Origin: Antedon mediterranea | Taxonomy: Eukaryota > Animalia > Echinodermata | Reading direction: 5' to 3' | Length of the DNA stretch: 64,000 nucleotides | Assembly: GCF_964355755.1 (NCBI RefSeq) | Contig: NC_092679.1 | Span: forward strand, 4,618,201 to 4,682,200 | In this document: positions 8,229-13,834 of the stretch, one piece after another | Layout: the number at the start of each line of letters is the position of its first letter | Numbering within the stretch: the first letter of the stretch is position 1 | Made by a program: the position numbers and the translations under genes | Notes under the pieces: generated by a model | Database searches by the model: none | The model's input: only the letters and a program-made list of their open reading frames with translations | What the model was told of the DNA's origin: nothing

Positions 8229-11200
8229 ATGATACTGCTGTCTATCTTCGCTATCTTGTCTCTAACTGGAGAGGCAACGGCATGCTTCACGTGTCCACCG
8301 ACTTGGACGGCATTCGGCAACAGTTGCTATCGGCTGTTTCGAACCAACAGGAGTGTCAATTGGAACGAGGCTGTAGACCTATGCAGGTATAATTTATTCA
8401 TAACTATTTACCTCACTTTTCTCTAAATGGGGACTAAATCTTAGGCATATTCTCACTCTTTAGATTGTTTAATTTCTTAGCATCCAAACACAACTTGTTG
8501 TTTTTTGACTACGATTGTCTTTTTTGCGTTTATTTTCCATTATTTGGTACTATCAGTCGGTCTTCATATACGTATTTCATACCACCCCAAAAAGATCACA
8601 CGAGTAGGCCTATTATTTGATTAATTTTCTATCATAGATTACATGTAAATTGTGAAGAGATGTTAGAAGCAAAACTTGTGAAAATTGAAACATATGAAGA
8701 GAATAACTTCTTATCGCAATGGCTTTGGTCCGCGTACTACGCAATAAATACGTACGCATGGATTGGACTCCGGGAACACCAAGTGATAGGACGGCAGTTC
8801 TCGTGGCTCGACGGACAAAAGCTGGAGAGATACGCGTACTCAAATTGGAAACGTGAGGAGAATAAACCTTCTAGGACGCCGGGAGAATGCGTTTATATGG
8901 CAGTCGATACGGCGGTTGGATGGGAACGCGATTACGGAAACTGGAAAGATTATCCTTGTATCCATAAGGAACAGTGGCTGGAGTCGTACTTATGTGAGAT
9001 GCCAAGCTGTAGAACAGGTTAGACTATACATACTGATCAACACTCCTTTCGCCTGTCGATTTGATACGGGTGTAACCTCTTTTTCCAGAACCTGTCACTG
9101 CTGGTGTCCACCTTTGAAAATGAAAGTTCAAATAGGAACATTTGAACAGACAATCCCCTAAAGAAGCTTTTAACCAGTGCTACCAATAACATAAACTTCA
9201 TAGACTAGTTAAACTAAAATACAATGACCTCATTAAAAAGTTTATTCTGGCTATTGCCACGTACTCAGGTAACTGCGAACCGGTTGATGTTATCTGGCTG
9301 TAAGCCGGTGTGATATTTTTGATTAGGTAATTTAATTTAGATTCATATACACGTCATGGACATATTATTTATGTCATGCGGAGAATAAAATAAATTAATC
9401 TTTTTCCTACTTTTACTTTGCTAATTATTTTAATGATAGGACAAACTGATTTTCTGAACGGTGTGGAAGCACAAAGACCAAATGACGCCAGTTGTCCCGA
9501 AGGTAAGTTCACAAGAATTCAGGCTTAGTTTTACCCGGTTAAACTGGTGACCTACCTACGAAAGTAAACGATAATTGGCCCATTAATCCACCTTACCTGG
9601 GTATAAATATAAATAACTAAACCTAAATAGGTAATATCAATTTAACATATTTTGATTGGACAGAAGTTTATGACGTAATATTATTTATTTTGAAAAAAAT
9701 AACAAATTTTTCCAAAAACACTCCCATTTTTCTTTTAGCTCTTAAATGTTCAGATCGTCCGTGTTTAAACGGTGCTACTTGTTCAGACGACGAGCCACAG
9801 GGCTACGTATGTCAATGTCAAAATGGATACATAGGAAAACATTGCGAAAAAGGTAGGCTAAACATTATTAAAACTTCTCTTACGCAACTAATGTTCACTA
9901 TAAACACACGGTTACACGTAATACACTGCATCCACTGTTTCAATGTATAGTATTAAGAGAAGGTTATCTAATTATCGTTTCTTTATTCAGATATTGACGA
10001 ATGCTCTTCATCTCCGTGTCTAAACAGTGGTTCATGTGAAGATGGAGAAAACGGTTACATCTGCGCATGTTCGAACATGTATTCTGGCGATAATTGTGAA
10101 ATACGTACGACATTTCGGGATTGTACCAGATATTATTCAAGATTTCTTCTGAAATCAAGTGTTCCATCCATGCATTGGCTTCCATTCAAGTTTTTTTTTT
10201 CTGTTTTTAAATATTACATTTTGTTTGTATATTTTCATACATTAAATATTAAAAGTGACTGAGAAAAATATATCATATCAATAATATTTTTCTATTATAA
10301 TTGCTTTCTACAGGTTTGACAAAAAGAGGAAGTCAGCAGCAGCAAGTGTTAGAACTTTTAACAAGACCAATCCCTTCAACAACAAACAACGACTCGCTAC
10401 CGGTACCACTCGGTGTTGGTGTTCTACCAAAGAATCAGCAATTCTCCGTGTTTAGTATCTCACACAACGAAGAAGCACGAGCAGCTATCGAGTTTATCGA
10501 TAAAGCGCCTACGTTTGAACAGGCGATTGGAAGGGCAGCGGCACTGCGAGGTCAAATGAATGAAGAAATGTGGATGCTTGTTGCTGCAAGAGGTCTTGAG
10601 AATCGGAACGATCTCGATGGAAGCTTAGTTCTCCCGCCAATGTTTCAGATTCTCCCGACCAGTTTCTTCAGCAAAGATACAATTGAAAACTCAATCACCA
10701 AGACACAAAGTGCATCTCCTACTAATACCACAAACGATGTCGAGAATGTTATTTCGAAAGATACATCAATGTTTAATAATATAGCTGATATCCCGATGGC
10801 TACGGAAGCAGTACCATCATGGGGAGCAGGTGAGACGGAGCACTACTGCACATCCGATCCAGACGATGAGATCTTGTCACCTCGCGATGCCGAATCATTG
10901 TTATCTTGGTGGAGAGAAGATGTCAGACTGAACTATTTTCATTATCAATGGCACTCTCAGTTCCCGCCAAGTGGTACCGGTTCCCGCCCTTTTGATCGTC
11001 AGGGTGAGCTGTTCTACTACATGCACCAGCAGATGCTGGCACGGTACGATGTTGAAAGACTAGCTGTTGGGTTAAGTCTTACACATCCTTTAAGTGATTG
11101 GAAGTCACCTATCATTGTAAGTAAACATTAATGATAAAAATATTAATTGGAAAATTAAAATCAAAAAGTGTTAGGTTCATCAACACATGGCTCAGTCCTC

Positions 11201-13834
11201 CATAAACACAACGTAATGAAACACTCAATAATTGCAGTATGCGATAAAAAATTAATATAAAACACTACTTTTCAGGAAGGATATCATCCAGGCCTGTTAG
11301 CAAGGAACACTTCTTACGGATTCTCTTCTCGTCCTCCTGGTATGGTCTTAAGCAATGACATCAGAAGCAAACCAGACATTTATATTCCAGTACCAACTGG
11401 AATGAAGATACTGGAACACTTGACGGAACTCCGAAGAAGAATTCTCGGCGCCATTACGTCACAGAAAATGCAAACAGTAAATATTTTCTTTATAGTACTC
11501 AAAATTCTCAATTCTGAGGTAGACGAAAACAATCGAAAACTTTTTTAGAAATAACCGTCTTGGATGTTTCTAGAAACTTAGATCTGCTTATTGTTATTAA
11601 CAAAAAAACTATATTTTTACAGGAAAATCAAGAAATGGTTAGGACAAATATCGAACTGCTTGGAAGCGCAATTCAAGCGAATATCGGTAGCCCGAATCAG
11701 AATATTTACGGTAAACTCGGACTTCACGCCTGGGGACATATATTGATCTCCTTCATTACAGACCCTATGGCACAGTACAACATACCTCCTGGTGTGATGT
11801 TTGACGTCAAGACGGCATGTAGAGATCCAGTGTTCTACAGATGGCATAAGTTTGTAAACGAGTTCTTGGTGTTCCATAAGGAGACTCTTCAACCATATAA
11901 GAAGGACGATTTAATGTGGAATGATGTGGAAGTAAGACCGCCTTTTTAAACTACAAAAACGTGCACTTTGGATTTGCGTGGGAGAATCATTTAGAGCCCA
12001 TACAAAATTACTTTTTAAAAGATTTAACGTTTTAAACATTTATGATATAAATAAATTACAAGTTGCCTCATTTATGTACCGTTTATCTAACAATTTACTG
12101 CCTTCACATTTTAGTGCTTTATTTACAAGAATTGACGAACGCCATTCCTATAAAACCAGATCCTCTGTAAACAATTATATTTTTGATAATTTAAATGTTA
12201 AGGCTCGACGATCTTCTATTTATTAATTTGGTCCTAAACTTTGGACTTCACTCTCAAATGAACTTAAACAGAAATCTTCCTTTTCTAGTTTTAAATCTAA
12301 TTTCAAACACAACACAATATATATATAAGTGAGAAAACTGCACCTTATTTTTTATTTCTTTTGGTCTAAATAAACGCAAAGCACCATTTGAAAAGTCGTT
12401 TACGTTCGTTAAGTTACCATCGCTGGTAATTCCTTTTTTTATTTATTCGGATTACAGATAATGGATGTCAGTGTGAACACAGTGAAATCGAACTCCAGTC
12501 CAATCAAGAATCGACTTATGACGTATACAAAATCAATGGATATCGATGTACCAAAAGATATGTTCATAATCAATAGAGACATTAATATCGATCCAGTAAA
12601 GGTAAACCTAATAACTATACATTTTGTTTTGATCGATTATCCTGAAGAATGTGTTGGGGACCATGTTGAAATTACTCTACTGTTAACTACTACGGTAACT
12701 AAATATGTTAAAGCTTGAACCTGTTTATGTTTATGCAATTATTTAGGAAGCTATGATTGCACTTTATCTGAATTTCGACTGTCTTTGGTGGTACTTCCAG
12801 AATTCCTTCTATTAGAGGATTCCTGTGTGAATGTCTAGGCAAAAGATGATCACCACCATTTTATTTTCTTAAATGCAGATAACAGTAAAGTCCGCTGACC
12901 ACACTCCATTTTACTACACAATACGAGTTAACAGAAAGACTTTGGCGCCTATAAAGGCGATCGTTAGAGTGTTCCTTGCACCAATCCGTGACGAAACTGG
13001 AAGAGCGTTGAACATTAATATGCAACGGCGACTGGCTATCGAGATGGACAAATTTACAGTTGATTGTACGTGCAGCGCATTTTAGTAGTAAACTATAAAC
13101 AAAAACTGTTTTTCTTTATGTATCTTGTACTTTAAAGGGTCTTTTACAACTTTACATTGTCTTAGTAAGGTCCATGCCATTGCTAGAAAATGTATGTGAA
13201 CTTAAATTGATTTAATTGGACAGCTAGTGATTATTGTATATTAAAATGTATGACTTGTTTTCTATCAATTTTACAAAACGCAATGTGTTTCAATCTTTTA
13301 ATAAGAACTTGTTTAACTAATTTTTCAACAGTAAATTTTACTACTGAAACCATCACCCGTTACTCTAATGAGTCAACGATGCTTGTTTCACAAGAAAAAA
13401 CAATATCCGATCAAGAGAAGGATATCAAGTCTGGCAGCGACACAGTCTGTCCAGAAAACAGTTACTGCAACTGTGGCTGGCCTTCAAACTTGCTGCTACC
13501 AAGAGGAACAAGAAACGGAATGAAGTTTAACCTTTTTGTTATGCTAACAAATTGGGCAGAAGACATCACAAGTGAGGATTCCGACATCACCAAAGGGTCT
13601 ACTTTATGTGGGTTGAAAGGGCGCAAGTATCCCGATAAAAAGCCCATGGGATTTCCATTCGATAGGGCGATTAAACTGAGTAATACACCTGGACAAGGCT
13701 TGGTGACGATCAGTGATTTCGCGCAACAGTTTGGTAGAAGTAATATGCATGCAAGTATTATCAAGATCAGTAACGCCAAGTCCAGTTGTCCAACGGACGA
13801 ACAACCAAGTAAGCAACAATGCTGGCAAATGTAA
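8229..13834 (+). CDS. Secreted C-type lectin + 2 EGF + arthropod-type hemocyanin/prophenoloxidase (type-3 copper) fusion protein, ~991 aa
   Basis: Eleven phase-compatible GT-AG exons: 8229-8386, 8638-9017, 9440-9502, 9739-9852, 9991-10104, 10314-11116, 11276-11476, 11623-11931, 12458-12601, 12879-13065, 13332-13834 (sum 2976 nt, no internal stop). Signal peptide [21 protein letters not shown] domain ([20 protein letters not shown]...WKDYPC...YLCE). EGF and Ca-EGF ([16 protein letters not shown]). Cu[15 protein letters not shown]...[21 protein letters not shown]. CuB: LHAWGH...RDPVFYRWH. Domain [43 protein letters not shown]. Confidence 0.9.
11958..12310 (+). mobile_element. LINE (CR1/L2/Crack-type) 3' ORF2 remnant in an intron
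   Basis: Reads [32 protein letters not shown]...HSYKTRS...[23 protein letters not shown], typical of the post-RT C-terminus of CR1/L2-group LINEs, with an in-frame stop. Confidence 0.8.

Follow-up and report, generated by a model that had tools for sequence, protein, structure and literature searches.

In a 64,000-nucleotide stretch of the genome of the feather star Antedon mediterranea (contig NC_092679.1, positions 4,618,201 to 4,682,200; below, the window, in whose numbering all positions are given), we found a gene at 8229-13834 whose modelled product joins, in this order, a signal peptide, a C-type lectin-like domain (CTLD), a linker, an EGF domain, a calcium-binding EGF domain and an arthropod-type hemocyanin/prophenoloxidase. 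Apparently, this is a variant of the hemocyanin/prophenoloxidase superfamily that is limited to crinoids and has not been described before. Our best explanation, still a tentative one built on the sequence, is that the gene encodes a secreted precursor, processed at a Lys-Arg (KR) pair, whose copper domain may act as a slow phenol oxidase, not a tyrosinase, and cross-link the extracellular matrix. The original prediction for this DNA had proposed a secreted single-chain immune effector, in which the lectin recognises microbes and the oxidase melanises them.

We rebuilt the reading frame from the window as 11 exons on the plus strand, separated by ten GT-AG introns of 138-526 nt. The joined exons (2976 nt) give a gene model of 991 amino acids (aa) plus stop without internal stops, in agreement with the continuous frame of about 991 aa claimed originally. 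The features are:

7317..8224, plus strand: possible intron in the 5' untranslated region, from a donor CAG/GTAAGC at 7317 and an acceptor TAG at 8222-8224
8229..8386, plus strand: exon 1, predicted signal peptide (aa 1-18) and start of the CTLD; phase-2 donor
8638..9017, plus strand: exon 2, remaining CTLD, to aa 179; phase-1 donor at 9018
9440..9502, plus strand: exon 3, 21-aa linker with conserved Cys198; phase 1-1
9739..9852, plus strand: exon 4, EGF domain 1 with O-fucose consensus; phase 1-1, Pfam
9991..10104, plus strand: exon 5, calcium-binding EGF domain 2 with DIDEC; phase 1-1, Pfam
10314..11116, plus strand: exon 6, LTKR-GSQQ junction, domain I, variable insert and CuA; Pfam and alignment
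11276..11476, plus strand: exon 7, hemocyanin M domain with conserved sequon Asn555; Pfam
11623..11931, plus strand: exon 8, CuB region with Gln629 and Ala647; alignment
12458..12601, plus strand: exon 9, start of the Ig-like domain III; tblastn with XP_033103049.1, E 1.3e-9
12879..13065, plus strand: exon 10, hemocyanin C domain; Pfam and tblastn
13332..13834, plus strand: exon 11, remaining hemocyanin C domain, sequon Asn837, C-terminal Cys977/Cys988 and stop; Pfam

Pfam, run on the 10 exon-containing open reading frames (ORFs), recovered the domains in the predicted order: Lectin_C (E 4.5e-15), two EGF domains (1.9e-8 and 2.6e-5), Hemocyanin_N (2.4e-5, under the curated cut-off and covering only profile positions 56-123 of 124), Hemocyanin_M (1.7e-22 and 1.2e-16) and Hemocyanin_C (2.5e-13 and 3.6e-28). 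The exon-9 ORF matched no Pfam family and was found by its orthologue with tblastn. The GC content is 0.34-0.51 in exons and 0.25-0.34 in introns, and the donor at 7317 scores 9.5, the highest of seven above 5 in 7000-8229. A contig of sequencing run X2 spans 7500-10829 and another 11192-11910, both with zero differences, and runs X3 and X5 span 7500-10829 in two overlapping contigs; these three runs carry the same sample code and could be the source of the window itself. Run X1, guessed to be RNA, covers introns and repeats as the DNA runs do, shows no spliced joint and is uninformative on expression. Of nine indels listed, the two coding ones (6 nt and 3 nt) preserve the frame, and of the seven non-coding ones, one has a length divisible by three. 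Among the 40 of 54 substitution rows listed, 12 were dropped as intron-8 repeat; 11 of the remaining 28 sites are coding, four synonymous and seven non-synonymous, with no stop and no clear signal of selection. We rejected a pseudogene, given the stop-free frame and the two in-frame indels.

Do the lectin-like and the hemocyanin halves belong to one gene? We consider it very probable that exons 2 and 3 are joined, judging from the comparison with a second crinoid, Anneissia japonica. Its signal-CTLD model XP_033120866.1, labelled 'partial' and the one member of its cluster, lies on a 1297-bp contig; its EGF-EGF-hemocyanin model XP_033103049.1, with no signal and no CTLD, lies on a 4.35-Mb scaffold. 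The two models meet exactly at the position of window intron 2: the former terminates at the residue matching the end of exon 2, and the latter starts at exon 3 after 12 extra residues, which may be intron sequence. Because the models abut at this intron and the CTLD model sits on a fragment, we infer that the halves are fused in Anneissia as well; one gene split by the assembly would be the simplest account. In the window, every junction from exon 2 to exon 6 is in phase 1. Scored with leave-one-out matrices from nine sites, the intron-2 donor ranks fifth of 10 in the gene (top 6.8% of all GT) and its acceptor, with a CTAAT at -19, seventh of 10 (top 16.3% of all AG). Exon 1 ends in phase 2, so that the signal peptide can reach exon 3 via exon 2 only, and none of 29 ATG-to-phase-1-donor candidates (68 ATGs, 5600-9437) combined a hydrophobic start with a usable donor, as an alternative signal exon would have to.

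Three points weigh against this joining. An unspliced intron-2 donor would meet a TAG at 9020-9022 and yield a complete 180-aa lectin, an AATAAA stands at 9384 inside the intron, and the label 'partial' on XP_033120866.1 could concern its 5' end alone. Two adjacent genes, or an intron 2 left mainly unspliced, would produce a separate secreted CTLD protein, perhaps part of the skeletal matrix, beside an EGF-EGF-hemocyanin; RefSeq does carry two separate Anneissia models, and C-type lectin proteins occur in the feather-star skeleton proteome (PMC7351957, in part). However, the exons are separated by 422 nt only, the EGF and copper domains carry secretory hallmarks without any other signal exon upstream, AATAAA or ATTAAA is present in 6 of 10 introns, and the Anneissia CTLD sits on a mere 1.3-kb fragment. 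We therefore regard two genes as quite improbable. A short lectin-only isoform alongside the fusion is possible.

Searches with exon 6 (66 proteins from 3922 candidates of 469-2000 aa) gave XP_033103049.1 as the best match, followed by sea-star and sea-cucumber proteins. This orthologue is 62% identical over 817 aa and contains the linker (11 of 21 residues identical), both EGFs and LTKRGSQQ, while XP_033120866.1 is 73% identical over 179 aa. A CTLD search near its own length returned one protein from one candidate, again XP_033120866.1; of 12 candidates among longer proteins, none passed, a weak negative. In a rapid IQ-TREE analysis with 45 of 138 hemocyanin-type rows, supported by SH-aLRT only, the window protein groups with Anneissia (100), then with the Anneissia paralogue XP_033106998.1 (95), inside an echinoderm clade (92) that is separate from the panarthropods; a careful tree search is unfinished. 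The presumed deuterostome origin is borne out by this position, from which we also rejected arthropod contamination or transfer. Of the wider phylogeny envisaged originally, the tree supplies the echinoderm part and holds no named tunicate, hemichordate or sponge row. The paralogue XP_033106998.1 has its own hydrophobic start and keeps the catalytic Glu; its model is without the CuA region and probably incomplete.

The combination of domains appears to be rare. Among 256 collected proteins, which are not an exhaustive census, XP_033103049.1 alone unites hemocyanin and EGF, and none unites hemocyanin and CTLD; the HMMER search with XP_033103049.1 was crowded by EGF-repeat proteins and covers the best 150 of 19,224. 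Pfam found accessory domains in 3 of 36 hemocyanin-type proteins (EGF, trypsin, ricin-B). Clusters of at least 50 members hold plain CTLD or plain hemocyanin only, which has no bearing on novelty. A metagenome scan with the CTLD gave no match, and one with XP_033103049.1 gave six loci at 32-71% over partial matches. No second gene copy lies within the window. As the original prediction had supposed, we found no description of the CTLD-EGF-EGF-hemocyanin architecture in open PMC or bioRxiv, subscription journals being outside this scope.

The copper domain is of the beta, arthropod type. All six Cu-binding His of the motifs quoted originally are present (486, 490 and 514 in CuA, at 10940, 10952 and 11024; 646, 650 and 686 in CuB, at 11725, 11737 and 11845), the CuA spacing is that of beta proteins, and Phe323 (10451-10453) aligns with the placeholder Phe49 of Limulus. 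Hemocyanin N, M and C profiles and a three-domain fold shared with arthropod-type beta hemocyanin and prophenoloxidase (Foldseek E ~1e-56, TM 0.90 by target) complete the resemblance; the model of XP_033103049.1 (pLDDT 79, residues 13-135 under 50) matches Limulus hemocyanin and the mosquito prophenoloxidase AgPPO8. Crustacean and insect hemocyanins are also secreted. By definition, beta-subclass proteins are cytosolic and have no signal peptide (PMC3658974, in part), and in this respect the hydrophobic N-terminus, subject to the intron-2 junction, departs from it. Beta descent despite the signal peptide is not in doubt.

Both residues expected of a canonical prophenoloxidase or tyrosinase, the general-base Glu and the Asn at HisB1+1, are missing. 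Gln629 (CAA, 11674-11676), also Gln in XP_033103049.1, stands at the catalytic position and aligns with Glu373 of 4YZW, which is AgPPO8 Glu364 in the numbering of PMC4700666, the offset of 9 being deduced from His383 and Asn380 in the part of that paper at hand. Of 113 six-His homologues (a subset of the 137 hemocyanin-type proteins collected, a redundant and search-biased set), 111 have Glu here, one Gln (the Anneissia orthologue) and one Gly, so that, among the homologues compared, only the crinoid proteins have Gln. HisB1+1 is Ala647 in the window and Gly in XP_033103049.1; in the 137 collected proteins it is Asn in 96 and Gly in 23. At the position of AgPPO8 Val406, Val673 offers no substitute Glu. 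In AgPPO8, E364Q removes 89% of the oxidase and 93% of the hydroxylase activity (PMC4700666, in part). AoCO is described as the sole characterised exception with Gln (PMC8049008, in part), and AoCO4, the Aspergillus oryzae catechol oxidase of the fungal short-PPO type with Gln273 and Gly285, is active, its group being named o-methoxy phenolases (PMC11803259, in part). Given Gln629 and Ala647, tyrosinase activity is therefore unlikely; the protein could plausibly show weak activity of the catechol type, or possibly none. Of the melanising function originally proposed, the six His stand, and the oxidase chemistry is weakened by the Gln and by the Ala/Gly.

These same residues would suit a secreted fusion that has given up catalysis, its copper domain reversibly binding O2 to carry, store or sense it, either still tethered or set free at KR. 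This is the main rival to a matrix oxidase, and we hold it to be rather doubtful. In two species the six His and the placeholder Phe are retained and both activating residues lost, a loss whose cost is indicated by AgPPO8 E364Q; the hemocyanin M domain is 74% identical between the two crinoids, and the Glu-bearing paralogue XP_033106998.1 could do the enzyme's job. However, arthropod oxygen carriers keep Glu and Asn and thus did not arise by such a loss, the Gln- and Gly-bearing AoCO4 is an active enzyme, no crinoid respiratory copper protein turned up in the open PMC and bioRxiv literature, and the window holds one copy only. An evolutionary version, distinctly unlikely in our view, would have a crinoid signal-CTLD-EGF-EGF leader shuffled by exons onto an ancestral cytosolic phenoloxidase that then dropped its base, resulting in a non-catalytic O2 binder and an independent deuterostome hemocyanin.

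The lectin-like domain shows the CTLD fold with WIGL and the core cysteines. However, KPS (8864-8872) and WKD (8942-8950) stand, in both crinoids, where sugar binders have EPN/QPD and WND, the motifs of Ca2+ site 2 linked to sugar binding. Because invertebrate motifs vary widely (PMC5877582, in part), calcium-dependent sugar binding is unlikely rather than excluded. The CTLD is the best conserved part of the protein: 124 of 160 residues (78%) are identical to XP_033120866.1, and 32 of 32 at aa 68-99, an invariant aromatic block that suggests a protein interface. Its PDB matches are weak and mixed, and a single-sequence fold of exon 2 gave a weak model (pLDDT 39.9). We rejected the snake-venom relationship implied by the 'snaclec' name, which stems from a weak automatic best match.

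The recognition step of the proposed immune effector is not supported by these motifs. Its architecture and likely secretion hold, non-canonical invertebrate lectins can bind microbial patterns (PMC5877582, in part), and an activity of about 10% may do if tethered. Nevertheless, KPS and WKD in both crinoids, the Gln/Ala active site and a KR site between the lectin and oxidase parts all speak against it, as does a CTLD that is the most conserved region, which would be unexpected for a fast-evolving receptor. The characterised sea-cucumber immune phenoloxidases, in addition, are of laccase type, and the available text of PMC13673367 never mentions hemocyanin. We consider a microbe-melanising effector unlikely.

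Secretion of the product is likely, as originally proposed: the N-terminal hydrophobicity (Kyte-Doolittle 10-mer maximum) is 3.06 in the window model and 3.11 in XP_033120866.1, with the cleavage site placed by eye. Cys455, Cys677, Cys977 and Cys988 and the sequons Asn555 and Asn837 occur in both crinoid orthologues but in none of five further echinoderm homologues, of which the partial XP_033106998.1 does not cover position 455. EGF domain 2 follows in both crinoids the calcium-EGF pattern (D/N-x-D/N-E-C and C-x-D/N-x4-Y/F-x-C) and carries the Asx-hydroxylation, O-glucose and O-fucose consensus. K280-R281 (10322-10327), within LTKR-GSQQ and kept in both crinoids, lies at the ancestral start of the hemocyanin: the N-termini of four echinoderm homologues align with GSQQQQVL, and the pair stands two to three residues ahead of the aligned start of the signal-less ones. 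The product is likely cut in two here, so the 'single-chain' view holds for one multi-domain gene and probably not for the mature protein. We rejected a furin site, as L-T-K-R is plain dibasic and lacks the R-X-K/R-R consensus.

Based on these features, we propose that intron 2 is spliced and exon 1 supplies the sole signal peptide, and that the precursor would be glycosylated and disulfide-bonded in the secretory pathway. A convertase could cut after KR281 and release a subunit of native length, initially latent behind Phe323. This subunit would bind two Cu and O2, deprotonate phenols poorly and hence oxidise catechols or substituted phenols, not tyrosine, while the CTLD-EGF-EGF part may bind protein or matrix, not sugar, and localise or scaffold the reaction. 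Several points count against such a matrix oxidase. The KR site is not of furin type, and its cleavage would part the targeting segment from the oxidase unless the pieces remain bound. The comparable E235Q mutant of ToPPO2 is inactive, its diphenolase activity abolished (PMC8049008, in part), and the protein may be no enzyme. The parallel with AoCO4 is an analogy only, because AoCO4 is unrelated and alpha-type, and the matrix role draws, again by analogy, on ascidian Tuphoxin, itself of putative activity.

Crinoids contain polyketide pigments, among them naphthopyrones and anthraquinones. A secreted oxidase for oxidative coupling of such hydroxy- and methoxy-substituted pigments in granules would agree with the Gln/Gly signature that marks o-methoxyphenolases (PMC11803259, in part) and with a Gln form confined to crinoids. 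It seems highly improbable to us: the window shows no pigment-cell link and no polyketide genes, and the CTLD-EGF modules would be superfluous for pigment coupling.

How does the protein compare with known systems? From arthropod-type beta proteins it differs in its N-terminal CTLD-EGF-EGF, in Gln for the catalytic Glu and in Ala/Gly for Asn. The two Anneissia models represent the same orthologue in two pieces, with KR, Gln, KPS, WKD and the extra Cys, but are annotated as two genes ('hemocyanin AA6 chain-like' and 'snaclec ... -like, partial'), the joined architecture being unrecorded. Acanthaster, Patiria and Holothuria hemocyanin-like proteins share the echinoderm clade but have no hydrophobic start, EGF or CTLD and keep Glu-Asn. 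Tuphoxin, built as signal-EGF-EGF-TSP1-tyrosinase, is likewise a secreted deuterostome type-3 copper protein; no peptides from its EGF pair were detected, and early removal of the pair and tunic sclerotisation were proposed (PMC9395347, in part). However, its domain is of the alpha subclass, TSP1 takes the place of the CTLD (Pfam finds no TSP1 in the feather-star protein), and its origin is independent. AoCO4 shares Gln at the waterkeeper and Gly/Ala at HisB1+1, and most of its type are predicted to be secreted (PMC11803259, in part), but it belongs to another subclass and fold context, lacks accessory domains, and its signature is convergent.

Two further fusions of an accessory domain with a hemocyanin-type core, uncharacterised and from other lineages with other domains, were observed. 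A 948-aa thrips protein, present in two sources (XP_052128833.1 of Frankliniella occidentalis and a Logan record, P0212/P0236), has a hydrophobic start, a trypsin-like protease and a prophenoloxidase-like core with HisB1 replaced by Thr. In the eukprot protein P0037 (962 aa), a core with six His and Glu-Asn is joined to a ricin-B-type lectin domain at the C-terminus. Hemocyanin_M and C with six His also occur in many proteins of bacterial or metagenomic origin (e.g. Bradyrhizobium, Neorhizobium and Longimicrobium, among P0011-P0066), although an earlier survey recorded the alpha subclass only for bacteria and no type-3 protein in sea urchin (PMC3658974, in part). One clade (P0017, P0020, P0022, P0246-P0256) has Tyr, Phe or Asn in place of HisA1, and Leu where the catalytic Glu would stand.

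Hemocyanin M was recorded in amoebozoans, a fungus, a sponge, a ctenophore, a hemichordate and a tunicate (PMC3730353, in part), and functional analyses of non-arthropod members are described as missing (PMC6034248, in part), so that functional data outside arthropods are almost nil in both surveys; their available text lists no echinoderm arthropod-type copper proteins. The Anneissia genome paper, as far as its text at hand and four supplementary files go, does not mention hemocyanin; it describes two skeletal CTLD proteins (PMC7351957). The present gene exemplifies how exon shuffling moves such a copper protein into secretion, and both crinoids retain a naturally occurring Gln in place of Glu. 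The gene offers a ready test of oxidase versus oxygen carrier at one residue, with the Glu-bearing Anneissia paralogue as control, and two RefSeq models are likely corrected to one split gene.

Within the gene, intron 8 contains a high-copy repeat (11936-12312) whose 96-aa open frame, without a Pfam match, presumably resembles the end of a LINE ORF2. Right after the stop codon lies a 20-bp tandem repeat of 3.3 copies (13837-13903), the consensus of which includes TGACGTCA. Low-complexity open frames without a Pfam match, Gln-rich in one and Thr/Ala-rich in another, lie on the minus strand at 14320-15989, across a tandem array of 30-bp units (14448-15392). A RAD51-family gene (1623-5567, minus strand; Pfam Rad51), which we take to resemble RAD51B, is oriented head to head with the fusion gene. 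Downstream on the plus strand follow RRP15 exons (24571-25375) and a gene for a TGF-beta family ligand with propeptide and mature domain (31955-40244).

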